A program made the translations under genes and the position numbers. Below are positions 27,680 to 54,958 of a stretch of DNA of 54,958 bases, piece by piece (positions within the stretch are counted from its first letter, which is position 1; each line of letters starts with the position of its first letter). The stretch is taken from the IMG/VR virus record IMGVR_UViG_2671180568_000004, one strand, 5' to 3'. The DNA is from a virus. Its lineage: Duplodnaviria > Heunggongvirae > Uroviricota > Caudoviricetes. The notes under the pieces were generated by a model. That model made no database searches, was not told the origin of the DNA, and saw nothing but the letters and a program-made list of their open reading frames with translations.

Positions 27680-28213
27680 TTATCTGTCGATTCCCCAGCA
27701 CGCCAGCGCGCTCTCCTGGTCACGACGGGATACCTGACCGTAACAGTTATTTGAGCGAATACGGCAGTCCCTGCCACCGTCCTTAATCCACCAGCGAATC
27801 GCCTCACACGCTCCCCTGCGATCACCTGCATTAATTCGTTTATAAAACGTCGACGGAAAACACTTACCGGGGCCAATGTTGTACGGACAGAATGACGCGA
27901 TCCCCGCTTTCTGGGGTTCACTCAATGGCACTCTGATGTTTTTCTCCACCCATGCCAGCGCCTTATCACGCTCAATGGCGTTAACCCGGTCGCATTTTTC
28001 CTTCGACAACTTCATGCCCGGAACGACAGGTTTGCCATCCACCAGGATGGCACCGCGGCAGATGGTCCAGATACCCGCGCCATCACGGTATGCCGTGGTG
28101 TGGTTACCTTCCTTTTCATCCAGAAACTGGTCGAGAATGTCAGGCGCAGGCGCACCAGCGGCAATCAGCGCCAGAACGGCAGCCGACAGGCCGTATCTGA
28201 TTTTTGCGTTCAT
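27680..28213 (-). CDS. R: SAR-type endolysin (T4-lysozyme-like)
   Basis: 177 aa; N-terminal signal-anchor-release-like segment MNAKIRYGLSAAVLALIAAGAPA; lysozyme catalytic region. Confidence 0.85.
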   Translation of the reverse strand: MNAKIRYGLSAAVLALIAAGAPAPDILDQFLDEKEGNHTTAYRDGAGIWTICRGAILVDGKPVVPGMKLSKEKCDRVNAIERDKALAWVEKNIRVPLSEPQKAGIASFCPYNIGPGKCFPSTFYKRINAGDRRGACEAIRWWIKDGGRDCRIRSNNCYGQVSRRDQESALACWGIDR

Positions 28214-39951: not shown

Positions 39952-40443
39952 TCACTCTCCTTTGATGCGAATGCCAGTGGTACTCATTCTCCTGATTTCC
40001 CAGAGCACACGAGGAACACCACCGTTTCCGACCGGATCGCGTTTACTCCGCAGGGCGACGCTTGATTCCGCCCAGCTTTTTCTTGGAGGAAGCTCTTTCA
40101 CACGAACAAAACCAGCTGCGCGGAGAGATGCTCCTGATTCATCTGCCTGGGTGTACGTAATACAACGTTGATAACCCATAGCCTTTGCTGCCCGCCAGAC
40201 AGCACCATAAAGCGCGCTGTTAGCGTTGCGTTCTCCTGTGGTACATGTGCGATTTACTTCAAGCGTTAATCCATCGTCCAAATGTCGTGCAACAGGTCTA
40301 CCGGCTGTCGCCACACCTATCAATTCTCCGGCATCATTTCTCAGACCAATGCTGAATTTATGCCCCACCGGGGGTTTATTGTGTCGGTGATGTCTGGATA
40401 TAAACGCCTTCGCAACACGAAGAGTAACCGGTGAAATTTGCAT
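39952..40443 (-). CDS. hypothetical protein with GNAT-like sequence pattern (163 aa)
   Basis: ATG (MQISPV) with AAGGAG RBS; ...GVATAGRPVARHLDDGLTLEVNR...YTQADESGASLRAAGF suggests an acetyltransferase-like fold (weak). Confidence 0.45.
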   Translation of the reverse strand: MQISPVTLRVAKAFISRHHRHNKPPVGHKFSIGLRNDAGELIGVATAGRPVARHLDDGLTLEVNRTCTTGERNANSALYGAVWRAAKAMGYQRCITYTQADESGASLRAAGFVRVKELPPRKSWAESSVALRSKRDPVGNGGVPRVLWEIRRMSTTGIRIKGE

Positions 40444-40445
40444 TC

Positions 40446-40805
40446 TCACTCTCCTTTGATGCCAATGTTTACAGACTGGCAAGCCTCTTTGAGCACCCAG
40501 TCAACAGCGTCTTTCCATGCTCCGGTTTCGACTGGCGGATTCTCACGCTTTACCTGTTCATAGAAACGCACTGCTTTAATCAATCCTTCTGGTGTCAGTG
40601 GCACAGGCGGGGCAGTGAATAACACCTGAATTTCATAGTTCGGTCCGTCGTTGCAATCCTCTTTTGTCGGTACATATTTCCAGTCACCAACCCACTGCTT
40701 CCCCTGAAAGTCTGTAACGCCTTTTTTCACGTAGCGATATCGCCATGCCACTGGTTTTGCCTGCCCTGCCTTTTCATGCCCTTCCTGATAATTAATCTCG
40801 CTCAT
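40446..40805 (-). CDS. hypothetical nin-region protein (119 aa)
   Basis: ORF track; ends IGIKGE at the junction sequence. Confidence 0.5.
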   Translation of the reverse strand: MSEINYQEGHEKAGQAKPVAWRYRYVKKGVTDFQGKQWVGDWKYVPTKEDCNDGPNYEIQVLFTAPPVPLTPEGLIKAVRFYEQVKRENPPVETGAWKDAVDWVLKEACQSVNIGIKGE

Positions 40806-42183: not shown

Positions 42184-42585
42184 GTGGGAACCAAAGTGTC
42201 AGATATGCAGAAAAATGTGACTCCCGGCAGGCGAAAAGGCTGCCCTAATTATCCTCCCGAATTTAAACAGCAGCTCGTTGCTGCCTCCTGTGAACCCGGG
42301 ATATCCATCTCAAAACTTGCTCTTGAAAATGGCATTAACGCCAATCTGTTGTTCAAATGGCGACAACAATGGCGCGAGGGAAAGCTGCTATTACCTTCTT
42401 CAGAGAGCCCCCAGCTACTTCCTGTGACTCTCGATGCAACTGCCGAACAGCCAGAATCGCTCGCAGAGGACCCGGAAACCCTCAGTATCAGCTGTGAGGT
42501 AACGTTCCGGCACGGGACGCTCCGCTTCAATGGCAATGTCAGCGAAAAGCTCCTGACTCTGCTGATACAGGAACTGAAGCGATGA
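42184..42585 (+). CDS. IS66-family accessory protein (first ORF)
   Basis: 133 aa; HTH-like N-terminus; a partial duplicate lies at 41945..42102 before the gap. Confidence 0.8.
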   Translation: MGTKVSDMQKNVTPGRRKGCPNYPPEFKQQLVAASCEPGISISKLALENGINANLLFKWRQQWREGKLLLPSSESPQLLPVTLDATAEQPESLAEDPETLSISCEVTFRHGTLRFNGNVSEKLLTLLIQELKR

Positions 42586-42929
42586 TCCCGTTACCTTCCG
42601 GGACCAAAATTTGGCTGGTTGCCGGTATCACCGATATGAGAAATGGCTTCAACGGCCTGGCTGCGAAAGTACAGACGGCGCTGAAAGACGATCCCATGTC
42701 CGGCCATGTTTTCATTTTCCGGGGCCGCAGCGGCAGTCAGGTTAAACTGCTGTGGTCCACCGGTGACGGGCTGTGCCTCCTGACCAAACGGCTGGAGCGT
42801 GGGCGCTTCGCCTGGCCGTCAGCCCGTGATGGCAAAGTGTTCCTTACGCAGGCGCAGCTGGCGATGCTGCTGGAAGGTATCGACTGGCGACAGCCCAAGC
42901 GGCTGCTGACCTCCCTGACCATGCTGTAA
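42582..42929 (+). CDS. IS66-family TnpB-like protein (second ORF)
   Basis: 115 aa; overlaps the first ORF by 4 nt. Confidence 0.8.
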   Translation: MIPLPSGTKIWLVAGITDMRNGFNGLAAKVQTALKDDPMSGHVFIFRGRSGSQVKLLWSTGDGLCLLTKRLERGRFAWPSARDGKVFLTQAQLAMLLEGIDWRQPKRLLTSLTML

Positions 42930-42978
42930 ATCTCTTTATCCTGGTTGTCACAGAATAAGCCCGGTAAAATACGGGCTT

Positions 42979-43841
42979 ATGAACGACATCTCTTCTGACG
43001 ACATCTTCCTGCTGAAACAGCGCCTGGCCGAACAGGAAGCGCTGATCCACGCCCTGCAGGAAAAGCTGAGCAACCGGGAGCGCGAAATAGACCATCTGCA
43101 GGCGCAGCTGGATAAACTCCGCCGGATGAACTTCGGCAGTCGTTCCGAAAAAGTCTCCCGCCGTATCGCACAAATGGAAGCCGATCTGAACCGGCTTCAG
43201 AAAGAGAGCGATACGCTGACTGGTAGGGTGTATGACCCGGCAGTACAGCGTCCGTTGCGTCAGACCCGCACCCGTAAGCCGTTCCCTGAATCACTACCCC
43301 GTGACGAAAAGCGACTGTTGCCTGCGGCGCCGTGCTGCCCGAACTGCGGCGGTTCACTGAGCTATCTGGGCGAGGATACCGCCGAACAGCTGGAGTTGAT
43401 GCGTAGCGCCTTCCGGGTTATCCGGACGGTACGGGAAAAACATGCCTGTACTCAGTGCGATGCCATCGTGCAGGCACCTGCACCTTCGCGGCCCATCGAG
43501 CGGGGTATCGCCGGACCGGGGCTGCTGGCCCGCGTGCTGACCTCGAAGTATGCAGAGCACACCCCGCTGTATCGCCAGTCAGAAATATACGGCCGGCAAG
43601 GTGTGGAGCTGAGCCGTTCACTGCTGTCGGGCTGGGTGGATGCATGCTGCCGGCTGCTGTCTCCGCTGGAAGAGGCGCTTCATGGCTATGTCATGACTGA
43701 CGGCAAACTCCATGCCGATGATACCCCGGTCCAGGTACTGCTGCCGGGTAATAAGAAGACGAAGACCGGGCGGTTGTGGGCGTATGTTCGTGATGACCGC
43801 AATGCCGGGTCAGCGTTGGCACCTGCAGTGTGGTTCGCTTA
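42979..43841 (+). CDS. IS66-family transposase, 5' part (continues at 45633 in this scaffold)
   Basis: zinc-finger CCPNCGG...CTQCD and coiled-coil N-terminus; sequence 43738..43841 reappears at 45633..45736. Confidence 0.75.
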
Positions 43842-43879
43842 GGGGTCTGACGCTCAGTGGAACGAAAACTCACGTTAAG
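43842..43879. repeat. Tn3-family 38-bp terminal inverted repeat
   Basis: GGGGTCTGACGCTCAGTGGAACGAAAACTCACGTTAAG read directly. Confidence 0.85.
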
Positions 43880-45177
43880 CAACGTTTTCTGCCTCTGACG
43901 CCTCTTTTAATGGTCTCAGATGTCCTTTGGTCACCAGTTCTGCCAGCGTGAAGGAATAATGGCCGAGCATATTGATATGTCCGTGGCAAAGCGGGGAGAG
44001 GCGTGCGATATCTTCATCATTCAGTGTTTCACCCTGCGCCCGGAGATGATCCAGGGCTGCCTGCATATAAATAGTGTTCCATAACACGACGGCGTTAGTG
44101 ACCAGCCCCAGTGTGCCCAGTTGATCTTCCTGACCGTCGGTATATCGTTTTCTTATCTCACCTTTTTGACCGTGACAGATGGCTCTGGCAACGGCATGGC
44201 GACTTTCTCCCCGATTAAGCTGGGTCAGAATGCGCCGGCGGTAATCTTCATCATCAATATAATTAAGCAGATACAGCGTTTTGTTGATGCGCCCCACTTC
44301 AATGATTGCCTGAGTCAGTCCGGAAGGACGTTCACTTTTCAGCAATGAACGGACCAGCACTGAAACCTGTACTTTGCCCAGCTTCAGGGAGCCAGCGGTC
44401 CGGATCATTTCGTCCCACTGAAGGACTATTTTTCGGGGATCTGATTGCCCTCTGGCAATATCATTCAGCACGCCATAGTCGGCATCATGGTCCATTCGCC
44501 AGAAAACCGAAGCACCGGCATCAGCCAGGCGTGGAGAAAACTGGTATCCCAGCAGCCAGAAAAGGCCAAAGACAAGTTCGCTGGCACCTGCTGTATCGGT
44601 CATAATTTCGGTTGGATTCAGCCCGGTCTCCTGTTCCAGAAGACCTTCCAGCACAAAGATAGAGTCCCTCAGCGTCCCCGGTATAACGATGCCATGAAAG
44701 CCGGAATACTGATCGGACACAAAGTTGTACCAGGTGATCCCTCTGTTATTACCAAAGTATTTGCGGTTCGGTCCGGCATTGATTGTTCTGACTGGCGTAA
44801 CAAAGCGCATTCCATCTGCAGATGCCACTTCTCCTCCACCCCATATCTGTGCCAGTGGCAGCGTTGCCTGAAAATCAACCAGTCTGGCATTAGCGCTGGT
44901 GATAGTTTCAGCCCGCAGATAGTTCGCTTTTGTCCAGTTCAGCCGGTGTCGGGTCAGTGCAGGAACATTTGATCTGATCAGTGGTTCCAGACCGATATTG
45001 CAGGCTTCAGCCATCAGCACGGCGCTGATGCTGACGGGCAGATCATCAACTCTGGCACTGGCTTCACTAGCATGGAAAAACTCATCAGCAAATCCGGTAT
45101 GGGCGTTAATTTCGAGCAGCAACTCCGTTAAATCCACCGGAGGGAGTAGATCACTGATCATTTTGCTCAGTCGTTTC
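43875..45177 (-). pseudogene. tnpA: Tn3-family transposase, C-terminal ~435 aa only (5'-truncated by IS26)
   Basis: stop lies within the IR as in Tn3; 5' end abuts the IS26 end. Confidence 0.8.
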
Positions 45178-45622
45178 GGCACTGTTGCAAATAGTCGGTG
45201 GTGATAAACTTATCATCCCCTTTTGCTGATGGAGCTGCACATGAACCCATTCAAAGGCCGGCATTTTCAGCGTGACATCATTCTGTGGGCCGTACGCTGG
45301 TACTGCAAATACGGCATCAGTTACCGTGAGCTGCAGGAGATGCTGGCTGAACGCGGAGTGAATGTCGATCACTCCACGATTTACCGCTGGGTTCAGCGTT
45401 ATGCGCCTGAAATGGAAAAACGGCTGCGCTGGTACTGGCGTAACCCTTCCGATCTTTGCCCGTGGCACATGGATGAAACCTACGTGAAGGTCAATGGCCG
45501 CTGGGCGTATCTGTACCGGGCCGTCGACAGCCGGGGCCGCACTGTCGATTTTTATCTCTCCTCCCGTCGTAACAGCAAAGCTGCATACCGGTTTCTGGGT
45601 AAAATCCTCAACAACGTGAAGA
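45178..45622 (+). mobile_element. IS26 left end and partial transposase (cut off by N10)
   Basis: IR GGCACTGTTGCAAA at 45178; MNPFKGRHFQRDIILWAVRWYCKYGISYRELQEM... matches IS26 transposase. Confidence 0.85.
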
Positions 45623-45632
45623 NNNNNNNNNN
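45623..45632. other. N10 scaffold gap; sequence after the gap restarts at the equivalent of 43738
   Basis: read directly. Confidence 0.9.
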
Positions 45633-46412
45633 CTGCTGCCGGGTAATAAGAAGACGAAGACCGGGCGGTTGTGGGCGTATGTTCGTGATGACCGCAATGC
45701 CGGGTCAGCGTTGGCACCTGCAGTGTGGTTCGCTTACAGCCCGGACAGGAAAGGCATCCATCCGCAGACTCATCTTGCTTGCTTCAGCGGTGTGCTGCAA
45801 GCGGATGCGTACGCCGGGTTCAACGAGCTGTATCGCAATGGTCGGATAACGGAAGCTGCCTGCTGGGCTCATGCCCGCCGAAAGATCCACGATGTGCACG
45901 TCCGCATCCCGTCAGCACTGACGGAAGAAGCCCTGGAGCAGATCGGTCAGTTGTACGCCATAGAGGCGGATATAAGGGGAATGCCGGCAGAGCAGCGGCT
46001 TGCTGAACGTCAGCGAAAAACGAAACCGCTGTTGAAATCCCTGGAAAGCTGGTTGCGTAAAAAGATGAAGACCCTGTCGCGACACTCAGAGTTGGCGAAG
46101 GCGTTCGCGTACGCACTTAACCAGTGGCCGGCACTGACGTACTATGCGAACGATGGCTGGGTGGAAATCGACAACAACATCGCTGAAAATGCCCTGCGAG
46201 CGGTCAGTCTGGGTCGTAAAAACTTCCTGTTCTTCGGCTCTGACCATGGTGGTGAGCGGGGAGCGCTACTGTACAGCCTGATCGGGACGTGCAAACTGAA
46301 TGACGTGGATCCAGAAAGCTACCTTCGCCATGTGCTTGGCGTCATAGCAGACTGGCCGGTCAACCGGGTCAGCGAACTGCTTCCGTGGCGCATAGCACTG
46401 CCAGCTGAATAA
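45633..46412 (+). CDS. IS66-family transposase, 3' part (DDE region)
   Basis: continuation of the 42979 frame once the overlap is collapsed. Confidence 0.75.
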
Positions 46413-47868: not shown

Positions 47869-48294
47869 TTAGTGCATCACCACAGCATTCCCTGCCGGGC
47901 CGCCGCGATTCATCTGGTCATACAAAACAACCGCTGACGCAACAAAATCATCGACATCCTTCACCAGCCGATCCCGCCGTTCGACGATCTCACGGTAATA
48001 TTCAGAACTGTGGCTGCGCATACGGGCCACCAGCAAAGGCGGCATCGCCTTTTCGATCGCCGGTAACAGAGCCTGCATTTTTTCAACAGCATCAGGGGTG
48101 TCTTTATCCAGCCAACGGAAAATTTTCTGGGTATTACGGGCCAGGGCTTCCGGATGGCTGTCGTCATACAGTTCCGGGAACGTCATTCCCAGCTCGAAAT
48201 ACGCTTTGGTAATTTTCGCAGCCGGCACTTTTTCGCCGTCCGGATGCGCCCAGACATTCATCGCCATGCGGATGTGTTCATGCTTGATTTTCAT
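47869..48294 (-). CDS. YdaT-like early regulator (cII position)
   Basis: 141 aa; follows the Cro-like gene. Confidence 0.55.
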   Translation of the reverse strand: MKIKHEHIRMAMNVWAHPDGEKVPAAKITKAYFELGMTFPELYDDSHPEALARNTQKIFRWLDKDTPDAVEKMQALLPAIEKAMPPLLVARMRSHSSEYYREIVERRDRLVKDVDDFVASAVVLYDQMNRGGPAGNAVVMH

Positions 48295-48559
48295 GAATCA
48301 AGCTCCTAGAAAGTGGTTGTGTTAACGTTTTGGTATCTTCCAGCTCGGGCCAAATATTCATCCAATCAAAAGGCCTTAGTTGCTGACGTGTAACTTCACC
48401 ATTACTGGCTCGCTCAATAAGGACACATAACGATGCCCCTAACACTTGACCTTTACTCAATGCCTTTCTTAGATAACCGATGCTGGTACCACACTCGCAT
48501 GCAAACATACGCTGTTCATCTGACGAAAGAGAATTGAGAAATATTCTTAATTCTTCCAT
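48278..48559 (-). CDS. Cro-like HTH repressor (YdaS-like)
   Basis: 93 aa; ATG with AAGGAG RBS; HTH around QRMFACECGTSIGYLRKALSKGQV; divergent from the CI-like gene. Confidence 0.6.
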   Translation of the reverse strand: MEELRIFLNSLSSDEQRMFACECGTSIGYLRKALSKGQVLGASLCVLIERASNGEVTRQQLRPFDWMNIWPELEDTKTLTQPLSRSLIHENQA

Positions 48560-48659: not shown

Positions 48660-49079
48660 ATGGACAAATATGAATTTAGACGACAGCAACTCATCAAAAT
48701 TCGTGATGAGAAATGCGATGGTAAAGCGGTTAACGTGGCCAGAAAGATCGGGCGCGAGCCTTCTTATGTATCAAGAATGTTGTACCCAGAGGGGAAAAAG
48801 GGAAAAAAACGGATCGCTGATGATATGGTGGAGATTATCGAAGAGTCCTTTGGGTTACCCCGGGGATGGATGGATGGTATCGTTTCATCATCAACGAACA
48901 CAGCCTCCAGTTATGAAACAAGGGTTCTAACGCCACGACAACGTATTTTTTTAGATCTCTTAGACGAACTGCCAGAAAGTGAAGCGGATAAATTATTAAA
49001 AACTCTTGAAGAGAAAAAACAGTATTACAATATGATCTACGAAGAAATCCGTAAAAAGAAAGCACAAAACGCATCATAG
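48660..49079 (+). CDS. CI-like prophage repressor (HTH only, no LexA-type peptidase domain)
   Basis: 139 aa; HTH around VNVARKIGREPSYVSRML; no Ser/Lys peptidase motifs. Confidence 0.55.
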   Translation: MDKYEFRRQQLIKIRDEKCDGKAVNVARKIGREPSYVSRMLYPEGKKGKKRIADDMVEIIEESFGLPRGWMDGIVSSSTNTASSYETRVLTPRQRIFLDLLDELPESEADKLLKTLEEKKQYYNMIYEEIRKKKAQNAS

Positions 49080-49344
49080 CTCACCAAACAACTAGTCACC
49101 AGTTAAGACACCGCAAAAATTTACCCATGGGTATTTACTTTTTAAATACCTATGGGTATCCTTCTTTTCATACCAACCCACCCCGCCCCACAGAATGCAG
49201 GGCAATACTTCGAGTTACCAGGCAGTGGTCAGGGGTTAAGTAGCCAGCCCGAGGCGTAAGAACATGACGGCAGGGTTCAACTTTAATAACTATGCAGCAG
49301 GTTTTTGTTCCGCTCCCCCGGCGTTAAGGGGAAATGAGGTCAGC

Positions 49345-50369: not shown

Positions 50370-50427
50370 TTTCTGGTGACGTTTGGCGGTATCAGTTTTA
50401 CTCCGTGACTGCTCTGCCGCCCTTTTT
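50370..50427 (+). ncRNA. dicF: DicF small RNA (ftsZ-targeting), with intrinsic terminator
   Basis: TTTCTGGTGACGTTTGGCGGTATCAGTTTTACTCCGTGACTGCTCUGCCGCCC plus T-run matches E. coli DicF as recalled; about 170 nt upstream of dicB as in Qin. Confidence 0.85.
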
Positions 50428-50596: not shown

Positions 50597-50785
50597 ATGG
50601 AAACGTTATTACCAAACGTTAATACGTCTGAAGGTTGTTTTGAAATTGGTGTCACTATCAGTAACCCTGTATTTACTGAAGATGCCATTAACAAGAGAAA
50701 ACACGAACGGGAGCTATTAAATAAAATATGCATTCTTTCAATGCTGGCCCGTTTACGTCCGATACAAAAAGGATGCTGGCAATGA
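50597..50785 (+). CDS. dicB: cell division inhibitor DicB
   Basis: METLLPNVNTSEGCFEIGVTISNPVFTEDAINKRKHERELLNKICILSMLARLRPIQKGCWQ; ATG with GAGGA RBS. Confidence 0.85.
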   Translation: METLLPNVNTSEGCFEIGVTISNPVFTEDAINKRKHERELLNKICILSMLARLRPIQKGCWQ

Positions 50786-50973
50786 ATACAGCATTTGCAC
50801 TTGTTCTGACAGTTTTTCTTGTTTCCGGAGAGCCAGTTGATATTGCAGTCAGTGTTCACAGGACAATGCAGGAGTGTGTGACTGCAGCAACCGAACAGAA
50901 AATTCCCGGTAACTGTTACCCGGTCGATAAAGTTATTCACCAGGATAATAACGAAATCCCGGCAGGTCTTTAA
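50782..50973 (+). CDS. ydfD: YdfD-like small lysis-associated protein
   Basis: MNTAFALVLTVFLVSGEPVDIAVSVHRTMQEC...; ATGA overlap with the dicB stop. Confidence 0.75.
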   Translation: MNTAFALVLTVFLVSGEPVDIAVSVHRTMQECVTAATEQKIPGNCYPVDKVIHQDNNEIPAGL

Positions 50974-51065
50974 AACAGTTCCGTAATAAATATCCGGTTT
51001 CATTCTTATATGCCAGCAATGGCAGGGATTTGTTCACCCTTAAATCTGTAATGAGGTAAAACAAA

Positions 51066-53537
51066 ATGAGTAAAGTCTTTATTTGCGCCGCCATTCCGGA
51101 CGAACAGGCAATAAAGGAAGAAGGTGCCGTCGCTGTAGCCACTGCCATTGAAGCCGGTGATGAACGTCGCGCCCGCGCAAAATTTCACTGGCAATTCCTG
51201 GAGCATTATCCGGCTGCTCAGGACTGCGCTTATAAATTTCTTGTCTGCGAGGATAAACCCGGTATACCCCGCCCTGCCCTCGATTCCTGGGATGCTGAAT
51301 ATATGCAGGAAAACCGCTGGGATGAGGAGTCTGCTTCCTTTGTCCCGGTTGAGACTGAATCCGATCCGATGAACGTCACTTTTGACAAGCTGGCCCCTGA
51401 AGTACAGAACGCTGTCATGGTTAAGTTCGACACATGTGAAAACATCACCGTTGATATGGTGATTAGCGCACAGGAATTGTTGCAGGAAGACATGGCAACA
51501 TTCGACGGACATATCGTTGAAGCGTTGATGAAAATGCCAGAAGTTAACGCCATGTATCCGGAGCTTAAGCTGCATGCCATCGGGTGGGTTAAGCATAAAT
51601 GTAAGCCTGGTGCCAAATGGCCCGAAATTCAGGCAGAGATGCGCATCTGGAAAAAACGTCGCGAAGGTGAACGCAAGGAAACCGGAAAATACACGTCTGT
51701 TGTTGATCTCGCCCGCGCCAGAACCAATCAACAGCACAGTGAAAATTCAACAGGAAAAATCAGCCCGGTCATTGCTGCCATTCATCGCGAATACAAGCAG
51801 ACATGGAAAACACTGGATGACGAACTGGCCTACGCTCTCTGGCTTGGTGATGTGGATGCCGGAAACATTGACGGCAGCATCCATCGCTGGGCAAAAAATG
51901 AAGTTATCGACAACGACCGCGAAGACTGGAAGCGTATCTCGGCATCAATGCGCAAACAGCCTGATGCCCTTCGCTACGACCGCCAGACTATTTTTGGCCT
52001 TGTCCGTGAACGTCCGATCGACATTCACAAAGACCCTGTGGCACTGAACAAATACATTACTGAATACCTGACTACAAAGGGCGTGTTTGAAGATGAAGGA
52101 AGAAATCAGAGCGCAACTGATACTCTCTCGTCGCCAGTACCAGAAACTGATGCAGTGGAAACGGCAATTCCGGGCAACGAAAAAACCGAATGCAAAGTGG
52201 AAGTCGAACCATCTGTAGAGCGTGAGGGGCCGTTCTACTTCCTCTTCACCGACAAGGATGGCGAAAAATACGGTCGCGCAAACAAACTTTCTGGTCTGGA
52301 AAAAGCACTAGCCTTGGGAGCTACGGAAATCACAAAAGAGGAATACTTCGCACGTAAAAACGGCACGTACTCAGGTTCACAACAAAATACTGGTGCATCT
52401 GACACGACCGCACAACCAGAGCCGGTAAAAGTTACCGCTGACGAAGTAAACAAAATTATGCAGGCAGCCAATATCAGCCAGCCTGACGCCGATAAGTTGC
52501 TTGCTGCCTCTCGCGGAGAATTTGTTGCAGGGATTAGCGACCCGAATGATCCGAAATGGGTAAAGGGGATTGAAACCCGCGATTCTGTAAACCAGAACCA
52601 GCAAGAATCGGAACAGAACGACCAGAAAGCGGAACAAAACAGCCCAAATACGCAACAAAACGAGCCAGAAACGAAACAACCTGAGCCAGTAGCGCAACAG
52701 GAACCGGAAAAAGTCTGCACCGCCTGCGGTCAAAGCGGTGGCGGCAACTGCCCTGATTGTGGCGCGGTGATGGGTGACGCAACATACCAGGAAACATTCG
52801 ATGAAGAGAATCAGGTTGAAGTTCAGGAAAATGATCCGAAGGAAATGGAAGGCGCTGAACATCCACACAAGGAGAATGCTGGTAGCACTCAGGATCACGC
52901 CAGCGATAGTGAAACTGGCGAGACGGCAGATCCCTTAATTACGATGAACGGTCATTACGTTATCACATCCACCAGCAGGACGTGTGACCATCTAATGATC
53001 GACCTTGAAACCATGGGAAAAAATCCTGATGCCCCGATTATCTCAATAGGTGCAATATTTTTCGATCCGCAAACCGGAGATATGGGACCGGAATTTAGTA
53101 AGACTATCGATCTGGAAACTGCTGGCGGAGTCATTGATCGTGACGTCATTAAAAGGTGGCTGAAGCAATCACGTGAAGCGCAGTCTGCCATTATGACCGA
53201 TGAAATCCCGTTAGATGATGCACTGTTACAATTGCGGGAATTTATCGACGAAAACTCCGGTGAATTTTTTGTTCAGGTCTGGGGAAATGGAGCCAACTTC
53301 GACAACACGATTTTGCGCCGTTCATACGAACGGCAGGGGATCCCCTGCCCGTGGCGTTACTACAACGATCGCGATGTACGCACAATCGTTGAGCTGGGGA
53401 AAGCCATAGACTTCGATGCCAGAACGGCTATTCCATTCGAAGGTGAGCGCCATAATGCACTTGATGACGCCCGTTACCAGGCAAAATACGTTTCAGTTAT
53501 CTGGCAAAAACTGATCCCGAATCAGGCTGATTTTTAA
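51066..53537 (+). CDS. RecE-like N-terminal/linker region fused to a C-terminal DnaQ-like (DEDDh) 3'-5' exonuclease domain
   Basis: 823 aa; central DADKLLAASRGEFVAGISDPNDPKWVKGIETRDSVNQNQ...CTACGQSGGGNCPDCGAVMGDATYQETF resembles Rac RecE; C-terminus has MIDLETMG, VWGNGANFDNTIL and HNALDDARYQA instead of the RecE nuclease domain. Confidence 0.7.
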   Translation: MSKVFICAAIPDEQAIKEEGAVAVATAIEAGDERRARAKFHWQFLEHYPAAQDCAYKFLVCEDKPGIPRPALDSWDAEYMQENRWDEESASFVPVETESDPMNVTFDKLAPEVQNAVMVKFDTCENITVDMVISAQELLQEDMATFDGHIVEALMKMPEVNAMYPELKLHAIGWVKHKCKPGAKWPEIQAEMRIWKKRREGERKETGKYTSVVDLARARTNQQHSENSTGKISPVIAAIHREYKQTWKTLDDELAYALWLGDVDAGNIDGSIHRWAKNEVIDNDREDWKRISASMRKQPDALRYDRQTIFGLVRERPIDIHKDPVALNKYITEYLTTKGVFEDEGRNQSATDTLSSPVPETDAVETAIPGNEKTECKVEVEPSVEREGPFYFLFTDKDGEKYGRANKLSGLEKALALGATEITKEEYFARKNGTYSGSQQNTGASDTTAQPEPVKVTADEVNKIMQAANISQPDADKLLAASRGEFVAGISDPNDPKWVKGIETRDSVNQNQQESEQNDQKAEQNSPNTQQNEPETKQPEPVAQQEPEKVCTACGQSGGGNCPDCGAVMGDATYQETFDEENQVEVQENDPKEMEGAEHPHKENAGSTQDHASDSETGETADPLITMNGHYVITSTSRTCDHLMIDLETMGKNPDAPIISIGAIFFDPQTGDMGPEFSKTIDLETAGGVIDRDVIKRWLKQSREAQSAIMTDEIPLDDALLQLREFIDENSGEFFVQVWGNGANFDNTILRRSYERQGIPCPWRYYNDRDVRTIVELGKAIDFDARTAIPFEGERHNALDDARYQAKYVSVIWQKLIPNQADF

Positions 53538-53601: not shown

Positions 53602-53850
53602 ATGGCAAGACTTATTCTGCTCACTGAGTGGGCAAAAGAGGAATTCAGTGAACCGGTCCCAACTCCGAGTACGTTAAGTAAATACGCTAAAGCCGGAATG
53701 ATATTTCCTCTCCCCAAAAAAGTTGGAAGACGCTGGCGAGTGGATCCGCAAGCTCGCTTTGTCGGAATGGTAAACAAGCCGGAGGTGATCGCCACAGATC
53801 ACCCTGCTTTGAAGAGGATACTGGAAGATGGCGCGCCCGCGAAAATATAA
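53602..53850 (+). CDS. xis: excisionase
   Basis: 82 aa; immediately upstream of and overlapping int. Confidence 0.65.
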   Translation: MARLILLTEWAKEEFSEPVPTPSTLSKYAKAGMIFPLPKKVGRRWRVDPQARFVGMVNKPEVIATDHPALKRILEDGAPAKI

Positions 53851-54958
53851 AACCAATGTTCCGGGATTATCTCCGTATTTTGACAAAAGAAATAACAAAG
53901 TTTACTGGCGTTACAGGCATCCCATAACAGGCAAAAATCACGGTCTCGGCAGTATTGACCAGAAACTGGCAGAAACTATTGCAGCAGAAGCGAACAGCCG
54001 TATTGCCCGGCAGCAAATGGAACAAATGCTCAGTCTGCAGGAGAAAATTATTAGTGATACCGGCGGTTCATCAACCGTTACCATTTTTCTGAATAATTAC
54101 AGAAAAATTCAACAGGAAAGATATGAAAACGGCGAGATCAAACTCAACACGCTGAAACAGAAAGCGGCCCCTCTCAGGGTATTTGATGAACGTTTTGGCA
54201 CCAGACCGTTAGATGCCATAACCGTAAAAGATGTGGTATCAGTACTGGAAGAGTACAAGGCCAGAGGACATAACAGAATGGGACAAATTTTCAGGAAGGT
54301 ACTGATCGATGTTTTCCGGGAAGCTCAGCAAACGGGCGATGTCCCGCCAGGCTTTAACCCTGCAGAATCGGCAAAAAAACCGCAGGTGCGGATATCAAGA
54401 CAGCGACTGACTTTTGATGAGTGGATGATGATTTATAACGCAGCGGAAAAGGATGGTTACTTTTTACAGCGCGGTATGCTGCTGGCACTGATGACAGGCC
54501 AGCGCCTTTCAGATATTTGCAAAATGCAATTTTCGGATATCCGGGATGGTTATCTTCATGTCGAACAGCAAAAAACAGGAACCCGGATTGCCATCCCTCT
54601 GGCTCTGCGTTGCGATAAATTAAATCTCACCCTGGATGATGTGGTGTCATCCTGCCGCGATTGCGTTCTTAGTCCGTGGCTATTGCACCACCATCACGCG
54701 AAAGGGACAGCTAAGCGCGGCGGGATGGTTAAGCCAGCAACATTAACCGTTGCATTTAAAAAAGCCCGGGATTCTGTGGATTACAACTGGCGTGCTAATG
54801 GCACCCCACCCTCTTTCCATGAGCAGAGATCTTTATCAGAGCGATTGTTCAGAGAGCAGGGGGTTGATACCAAAATTTTGCTGGGCCATTCGAATCAAAA
54901 AATGACCGATATTTACAACGACGCACGCGGTAAGGAATGGAAAAAACTGGTCATTTGA
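53828..54958 (+). CDS. int: tyrosine-type site-specific integrase
   Basis: 376 aa; catalytic-domain pattern R...HxxR...Y near the C-terminus; stop at the last three bases of the window. Confidence 0.9.
   Translation: MARPRKYKTNVPGLSPYFDKRNNKVYWRYRHPITGKNHGLGSIDQKLAETIAAEANSRIARQQMEQMLSLQEKIISDTGGSSTVTIFLNNYRKIQQERYENGEIKLNTLKQKAAPLRVFDERFGTRPLDAITVKDVVSVLEEYKARGHNRMGQIFRKVLIDVFREAQQTGDVPPGFNPAESAKKPQVRISRQRLTFDEWMMIYNAAEKDGYFLQRGMLLALMTGQRLSDICKMQFSDIRDGYLHVEQQKTGTRIAIPLALRCDKLNLTLDDVVSSCRDCVLSPWLLHHHHAKGTAKRGGMVKPATLTVAFKKARDSVDYNWRANGTPPSFHEQRSLSERLFREQGVDTKILLGHSNQKMTDIYNDARGKEWKKLVI

Follow-up and report, generated by a model that had tools for sequence, protein, structure and literature searches.

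A RecE-like scaffold joined to a predicted DEDDh 3'-5' exonuclease domain in ydfE, the distal gene of a dicBF operon in a Qin-type lambdoid prophage

The closest described counterpart of the gene considered here is recE of the Rac prophage (exonuclease VIII, K-12 b1350), whose product is a 5'-3' nuclease encoded together with RecT. The N-terminal region makes full-length RecE much better at linear-linear recombination, a property that has been exploited in direct cloning. The function of the N-terminal ~600 residues of RecE has nevertheless been described as unknown (PMC11611040). A second reference point is DexA of phage T4, a 3'-5' DNA exonuclease that takes part in the scavenging of host DNA and in intron homing initiated by double-strand breaks (PMC12153337). 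A third is a 2025 survey of 325 lambdoid phages, in which DnaQ-like 3'-5' nucleases were found in recombination modules and "sporadic" DnaQ-type genes were noted very near int (PMC12315714). Here, we analyzed a gene that joins RecE-like and DexA-like parts. It lies in IMG/VR virus record IMGVR_UViG_2671180568_000004, a caudoviricete sequence of 54,958 nucleotides (the window), and is the ydfE-type exonuclease gene of a lambdoid prophage.

The gene is an intact open reading frame (ORF) on the plus strand at positions 51066 to 53537, as a preliminary description made from the DNA letters had delimited it; it starts with ATG, encodes 823 amino acids (aa) plus a stop codon, and is preceded by a Shine-Dalgarno sequence (GAGG, 51053 to 51056, read directly) 9 nt 5' of the start. 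All parts of the protein described below are likewise given in plus-strand coordinates. The C-terminal domain (aa 627 to 823, 52944 to 53534) had been proposed to be a DEDDh exonuclease on the basis of three motifs, all of which were found (MIDLETMG, aa 644 to 651; FDNTIL, aa 745 to 750; HNALDDA, aa 796 to 802). In a profile search, the domain matched the DnaQ-like family PF16473 (Rv2179c-like) at aa 642 to 813 over profile positions 2 to 177 of 177 (E value = 3.1e-63, 213 bits against a cutoff of 27), whereas the nuclease part of the RecE profile was not matched; RNase_T, the general RNase_T/DEDDh family, was a weak second Pfam match in the protein. The sole Protein Data Bank (PDB) match found for the domain by sequence search was T4 DexA (8KEL/8KEN), and the DEDDh residues D646, E648, D746, H796, and D801 are all present and align with D7, E9, D119, H186, and D191 of DexA. 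These catalytic residues are kept across an alignment of the domain, DexA, and stand-alone phage versions. The two proteins thus belong to the same DEDDh subfamily (Rv2179c/T4 DexA type), although they are only 25% identical and DexA, at 227 aa, stands alone and has extra loops. As a family, DEDDh enzymes are 3'-5' exonucleases.

We compared the rest of the protein with RecE. In a tblastn search, residues 278 to 592 of K-12 RecE matched aa 262 to 626 (39% identity, E value = 1.5e-60), and strong identity to RecE (74%, to RecE of Rac-SA53) was limited to aa 474 to 626. PRK09709, the NCBIfam equivalog for exonuclease VIII, covered aa 246 to 626 only, corresponding to profile positions 271 to 603 of 877, and scored 283 bits against a cutoff of 1269. 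The earlier proposal that the central region resembles RecE therefore stands for aa ~262 to 626 but not for the first ~245 aa, which form a separate module, YdfE_N. The PD-(D/E)XK nuclease domain of RecE (about residues 564/606 to 866 in K-12) had no match anywhere in the window by tblastn. PF06630 (Exonuc_VIII) had no Pfam match in the 823-aa protein, which carries a YdfE_N-type N-terminus instead; we rejected PF06630 as a marker of the RecE nuclease domain, as it maps to the RecE N-terminus in relatives, and because it is an N-terminal domain, its absence is uninformative about the nuclease. Among the features that identify RecE, the central/linker region and a four-cysteine motif are present, and the nuclease domain, PF06630, and a score above the equivalog cutoff are not.

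The window protein and Rac RecE are therefore alike in their place within the early-left operons of their lambdoid prophages, in a homologous central/linker region, and in having a C-terminal catalytic domain that follows the same junction. They differ in that RecE combines a PF06630 N-terminus with a 5'-3' PD-(D/E)XK nuclease and is accompanied by recT, whereas the window protein combines YdfE_N (first ~245 aa) with a DEDDh domain and has no recT. A sister protein in phage vB_EcoS-640R1 (813 aa) is 59% identical to residues 52 to 588 of K-12 RecE and then continues into the same DEDDh domain, and its gene lies in the same slot (dicB-ydfD-gene-xis-int). At the level of sequence, these comparisons confirm that a predicted DEDDh 3'-5' exonuclease occupies the place of the RecE 5'-3' nuclease.

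The protein has three parts, namely, a scaffold of three domains (aa 1 to 340), a linker, and the DEDDh domain. The YdfE_N-type scaffold region (51069 to 51662) consists of D1 (aa 2 to 94, alpha/beta) and D2 (aa 104 to 199, helical); it was assigned from identity to K-12 ydfE and from YdfE_N in close homologues, with its limits taken from an AlphaFold2 (AF2) model of P0291, a homologous Yersinia protein of 715 aa. A third scaffold domain, D3 (aa 244 to 340, helical; 51795 to 52085), is common to RecE-family proteins: it is 42% identical to D3 of P0291, matches RecE residues 295 to 368 weakly, and marks the start of the PRK09709 match. It is followed by a linker (aa 341 to 626, 52086 to 52943) that is acidic and rich in Q and N, as judged from its composition. 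The linker is predicted to be disordered, on the model of P0291, in which residues 345 to 424 have a predicted local distance difference test (pLDDT) score of <50. Its distal part (aa 474 to 626, 52485 to 52943), in which the BLASTP identity to Rac-SA53 RecE is found, has no counterpart in the P0291 model. This part includes the four-cysteine motif, CxxC-x7-CxxC (C551, C554, C562, and C565; 52716 to 52760), which also occurs in RecE of K-12 and Rac-SA53 and, being zinc-ribbon-like, may bind zinc. An AF2 prediction of the 823-aa protein made without an alignment had a mean pLDDT of only 34.7.

Two other possibilities were rejected. An internal start that would make the DEDDh domain alone is not preceded by a Shine-Dalgarno sequence (M627). 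Gene decay was ruled out, since the ratio of nonsynonymous to synonymous substitution rates was 0.14 to 0.45 in each of four regions of the gene, indicating purifying selection, and since the gene is intact in isolated phages.

Next, we looked into how the scaffold is used elsewhere, by exhaustively searching aa 1 to 626 against one representative per 50%-identity cluster, which gave 245 clusters, and by mapping the domains of these with phmmer. The N-termini of the relatives were of the YdfE_N type or the RecE_N type and were followed by the common middle domain and linker; the C-termini were of several kinds. The DEDDh C-terminus was found in P0002, P0121, P0122, P0128, P0141, P0142, and P0261, and the RecE nuclease was found in others, including on YdfE_N-type N-termini (P0132, P0191, and P0226). 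A third kind, present in 15 clusters, is a domain of ~270 aa with no Pfam match (e.g., Pectobacterium phage ZF40 gp07, PHROG 2489), and at least one more exists: a fourth, in P0125 and its relatives (PHROG 26058), spans ~250 aa, is dissimilar to the other three, and has no function assigned through Pfam or PHROG.

The third kind carries the motifs ATExFGPxGxGW and KKSLTDAxKKALSxLGF, which resemble the core of Rad52. By sequence, no match reached significance: Pfam Rad52_Rad22 was hit with an E value of 0.004, a PDB profile search gave no match, and the alignment made by hhalign with human RAD52 was collinear over 115 columns at only 2.5% probability. We modeled P0291 with AF2 from a 40-sequence alignment that included the N-terminal region of the window protein, and obtained a model (mean pLDDT, 73.8) in which the three N-terminal domains and the C-terminal domain are confident and the linker between them is disordered. 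In a Foldseek search of the PDB, the top 14 matches were to the N-terminal domain of human RAD52 (E values of 3e-5 to 6e-4, probability 1.0, ~183 columns), and matches among the viral structures of BFVD were labeled Rad52, Erf, or single-strand annealing protein (best E value = 1e-13). The assignment comes from these structure-based searches; on the predicted structure, this kind of C-terminus is a Rad52-fold annealase.

The scaffold-Rad52 proteins, represented by ZF40 gp07 (L012:3151-5316) and P0291 (L015:5001-7148), share the D1-D3 scaffold with the window protein (~29% identity over some 390 residues in 419 columns, 42% in D3), together with Pfam YdfE_N and YdfE_C and an operon place after a ydfD-like gene near xis-int. 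They differ in having a Rad52 fold rather than a nuclease and in that a Sipho_Gp157 gene separates them from xis-int. Such proteins are annotated as "exonuclease" or "exodeoxyribonuclease VIII-like," names that are probably wrong. They may be the "RecE-2" proteins of the lambdoid survey, which were described as distant RecE relatives of unknown role that lack the nuclease domain (PMC12315714). One possible reading of these combinations, which we regard as tentative and on balance doubtful, is that the RecE/YdfE scaffold would serve lambdoid phages as a general adaptor bringing interchangeable DNA-end effectors (5'-3' nuclease, 3'-5' nuclease, or Rad52-like annealase) to one partner or substrate.

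The DEDDh domain also occurs without the scaffold; homologues of it were found in 711 phage records. Stand-alone DnaQ-like exonucleases of lambdoid phages (mEpX2 gp31, g341c gp29, the epsilon34 type, LLS gp34, and mEp460 gp26) are 55 to 60% identical to aa 627 to 823 and, like the window gene, belong to early-left operons, near the integrase end in LLS and mEp460. They differ in being only 182 to 190 aa long and in having no scaffold. In mEpX2 and Salmonella g341c, where identity is 55 to 57%, the gene order is kil, erf, ssb, exonuclease, abc2, a module of the erf-ssb-exo-abc2 kind that is absent from this prophage. In Klebsiella phage SBP, a stand-alone version lies beside genes for SSB and a DNA polymerase, and in LLS the "DnaQ-like exonuclease" gp34 (56% identical to the DEDDh domain) lies directly before xis-int; LLS is the test phage of the work cited above (PMC12315714). 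A separate observation concerns Pseudomonas phage phiC725A, in whose early module (L013:3483-7454) a stand-alone Rad52-like protein is accompanied by a DUF1351 protein, an exonuclease of a different DnaQ type (RNase_T family), SSB, and RdgC; the module is another linkage of a 3'-5' exonuclease with an annealase.

We then asked whether the prophage carries an annealase that could act with the exonuclease. RecT of K-12 and of Rac-SA53 had no match in the six frames of the window (tblastn, best E value = 0.4), in agreement with the preliminary description, which had seen no recT-like gene after the exonuclease gene. A PHROG scan of ten ORFs of the early region returned replication, Ren-like, Mom-like, and transposase proteins and no annealase. 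In the whole identical prophage of Escherichia coli PCN033, the Prokaryotic Genome Annotation Pipeline (PGAP) lists RusA but no annealase (RecT, Bet, Erf, or Sak) and no RecBCD inhibitor (Gam or Abc2). Among homologous loci, a linked annealase was absent from all six surveyed (PCN033, mEp460_ev081, vB_EcoS-640R1, the enterobacterial chromosome with P0261, Tritos, and PhiR42_1). With a DEDDh domain in the nuclease position and no annealase linked to it, the gene is most likely not part of a RecET-type pair, and the caution voiced earlier against a simple RecET substitute is supported.

The distribution of Chi sites suggests another source of recombination functions. The window contains 11 Chi octamers, compared to 2.66 ± 1.75 in shuffled sequences, and none of 100 shuffles reached 11. 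Eight are on the minus strand (27788, 35173, 35488, 37653, 38720, 48027, 52969, and 53558) and three are on the plus strand (34359, 35152, and 37247); all eight of the minus-strand sites lie between the lysis genes and int, and the structural-gene half (1 to 27000) has no Chi. Because the minus strand carries the late genes (terS, 24666 to 25226; lysozyme gene, 27683 to 28213), it corresponds to the top strand in the lambda convention, and the eight sites are thus oriented to act on RecBCD that enters from the right cos end. Lambdoid phages without a recombination module are known to be Chi-rich and to grow better with host RecBCD (PMC12315714). The prophage fits this class and probably relies on host RecBCD: as it has eight Chi sites in the active orientation and lacks a recombination module, its homologous recombination is most likely carried out by host RecBCD and RecA. 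Two of the Chi sites are located inside or flanking the exonuclease gene.

The gene itself proved to be widespread and already catalogued, so that the preliminary description had overrated its rarity; it is among the commonest E. coli prophage genes. At the DNA level, at least 80% of it was covered in 3533 of 5426 complete E. coli genomes, with a median of two matching places per genome with any. PHROG 2082 ("exonuclease") matches aa 1 to 823 of 823, and WP_000048521.1 of E. coli PCN033, named "exonuclease" by PGAP and "3'-5' exonuclease" in other strains, is 100% identical. The K-12 Qin pseudogene ydfE (b1577), which is truncated by IS2, is 95% identical over aa 1 to 256, and relatives that are 90 to 98% identical carry precomputed matches to PF27430 (YdfE_N), PF16473, and PF27432 (YdfE_C); the names YdfE_N and YdfE_C are assigned to the window protein through these relatives and the K-12 identity rather than by a direct scan. 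The gene order also matches that of K-12 Qin (dicA, ydfABC, dicF, dicB, ydfD, ydfE, integrase). The gene is thus an intact ydfE, the last gene in the repressor-controlled dicBF early-left operon of a Qin/PPompW-type lambdoid prophage at ompW.

Directly upstream of ydfE are dicB and ydfD (50597 to 50973, plus strand; dicB, 50597 to 50785), placed by applying an offset of 42065 to the PGAP coordinates of the identical locus in PCN033. Farther upstream is the small RNA DicF (50371 to 50422, plus strand; Rfam RF00039, 76.7 bits, E value = 4.5e-16), and since DicF precedes dicB, the early-left operon is a complete dicBF operon like that of K-12 Qin. Downstream, the ORF list and PGAP place xis and int at 53602 to 54958 on the plus strand (excisionase, 53602 to 53850; integrase, 53828 to 54958). 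The xis-like ORF begins 64 nt past the ydfE stop codon, which accords with the 65 nt given for it earlier. The same arrangement was found in the isolated phages Tritos, PhiR42_1, and mEp460_ev081. No promoter-like site was found directly upstream of ydfE on its strand.

Several other features of the prophage were recorded. The immunity region is of the YdaS/YdaT type on the minus strand (47869 to 48559, Cro-like plus "toxin YdaT family") opposite a DicA-like repressor gene on the plus strand (48660 to 49079), and so resembles Rac and Qin rather than the lambda cI/cro pair. Directly after this cI-like gene, an inverted repeat with a 16-bp stem and a T-run (49122 to 49158, plus strand) may act as a strong terminator or else be an operator-like palindrome that heads the early-left operon. 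The replication/nin region holds nested insertion sequences (42184 to 45717; IS66-type tnpA, tnpB, and transposase), in which the IS66 transposase ORF is cut to 287 aa (42979 to 43842) by a transposase ORF on the opposite strand (43875 to 45182); at the corresponding place, PCN033 has only the IS66 element. An ORF on the minus strand (39955 to 40482) matches PHROG 1384, "Mom-like DNA modification protein," and is named an XF1762 family protein by PGAP in the identical prophage.

The explanation we favor, which we hold with slightly less than even confidence, is that ydfE encodes an accessory DNA exonuclease that is directed by its scaffold and trims 3' ends, while host RecBCD and RecA do the bulk of recombination. 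Upon induction of the prophage, the early-left promoter would drive its synthesis along with that of DicB, YdfD, Xis, and Int. The scaffold would then bring the nuclease to a target or partner that is also recognized by the N-terminal region of RecE itself, probably DNA ends, intermediates of recombination or replication, or a host factor that acts on these. There, the DEDDh domain would remove nucleotides from DNA 3' ends, as DexA does, with tails, flaps, or oligonucleotides as substrates, rather than form the resection half of a two-component recombinase. DNA is favored over RNA as the substrate because DexA is a DNA exonuclease and because the stand-alone versions of the domain have DNA-metabolism genes as neighbors.

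Several points weigh against this explanation. We infer the polarity of the protein, its DNA or RNA substrate, and its partner from sequence relationships, and the structure searches returned no analogue of the scaffold domains by which a target could be identified. The Pfam family of the catalytic domain, PF16473, is named for an exoribonuclease. Host 3'-5' exonucleases of the DnaQ type usually inhibit recombination, and the authors of the lambdoid survey explicitly do not count int-proximal DnaQ-type genes as recombination genes (PMC12315714). Furthermore, a DexA homologue of E. coli, EcD, has been reported as an anti-T4 defense nuclease (PMC12153337).

The last point leads to the competing explanation that survives best, although we consider it unlikely: the protein could be a prophage defense nuclease similar to EcD/HREX or TONDO, acting on the 5-hydroxymethylcytosine DNA of superinfecting phages or on the 3' ends of RNA phages, with the N-terminus as an auxiliary domain. 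In favor of such a role, protection against some phages has been reported for the neighboring gene dicB. PADLOC gave a weak match to the DEDDh domain as well (E value = 1.5e-5), but to a Cas-associated DEDDh domain rather than to a stand-alone system. EcD degrades T4 DNA and protects cells, and there are 5615 Escherichia RefSeq homologues of DexA, which probably include the ydfE-type family (PMC12153337). TONDO exonucleases are prophage borne and usually need an auxiliary domain (PMC13344964), although the likeness to these ISG20-like, anti-RNA-phage enzymes rests only on the DEDDh fold and the prophage location. EcD/HREX is, like the window protein, a DexA-family DEDDh exonuclease encoded in E. 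coli, but, as compared by description only, it appears to be short, stand-alone, and expressed from a plasmid in the published tests (PMC12153337). The position of ydfE also speaks against defense, because the distal gene of a repressed early-left operon with no promoter-like site directly upstream on its strand should be silent in the lysogen. In addition, W152 and D169 of DexA, which are reported to be required for recognition of 5-hydroxymethylcytosine (PMC12153337), are not conserved (Y766 and A780 here); this is not decisive, as an aromatic residue is kept at the first position. Finally, the scaffold is common to RecE and the Rad52-like annealase fusions, which points to recombination.

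A second alternative, which we rate as rather improbable, is that the protein is a recombination exonuclease whose annealase is supplied in trans, either by another prophage (RecT, Bet, or Erf) or by the host (RecA). A processive 3'-5' exonuclease would, on this account, turn linear duplexes into single strands to be annealed at replication forks. The slot just before xis-int and the RecE scaffold agree with this, as do the homologous stand-alone domains inside erf-ssb-abc2 modules and the phiC725A module, in which a DnaQ-type exonuclease accompanies a Rad52-like protein, SSB, and RdgC; moreover, the median number of matching places per E. coli genome is two, and these genomes often hold several lambdoid prophages. 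On the other hand, a linked annealase is missing from all six loci, enzymes of the DexA family have been described as acting on oligonucleotides or trimming ends rather than as processive resection nucleases, and the Chi enrichment argues for reliance on RecBCD. An exoribonuclease that trims the 3' ends of phage or host RNA, for instance in the processing or turnover of the DicF operon transcript, is the least probable of the three and quite unlikely: PF16473 takes its name from the Mycobacterium tuberculosis 3'-5' exoribonuclease Rv2179c, PGAP often names the protein "3'-5' exoribonuclease," and DicF comes from the same transcript, but the sequence search led to just one relative of solved structure, DexA, which is a DNA exonuclease, the stand-alone versions neighbor DNA-metabolism genes, and the fused scaffold belongs to DNA recombination proteins.

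In the literature, searches on Rv2179c and phage, ydfE, PF16473, and dicBF with ydfE found no functional study of the protein, and we found no paper on the scaffold-DEDDh fusion or on the Rad52 fold in the nuclease-less relatives. What remains of interest beyond prior work, which had partly anticipated the finding in 2025, is the combinatorial use of the RecE/YdfE scaffold and its Rad52-fold relatives. Roughly two thirds of complete E. coli genomes encode the protein, which occurs in prophages of enterohemorrhagic E. coli and in isolated phages. It bears on whether the abundant DEDDh nucleases of prophages serve recombination or defense and on the recombination-dependent growth of lambdoid phages that lack a recombination module of their own. 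If the adaptor reading is true, the N-terminal region of RecE would have a definable targeting function, and the DEDDh version would represent annealase-independent end processing that cooperates with host RecBCD and Chi. A scaffold found with three effectors also suggests a targeting module that may be amenable to domain swaps, and it predicts new reagents for recombineering.

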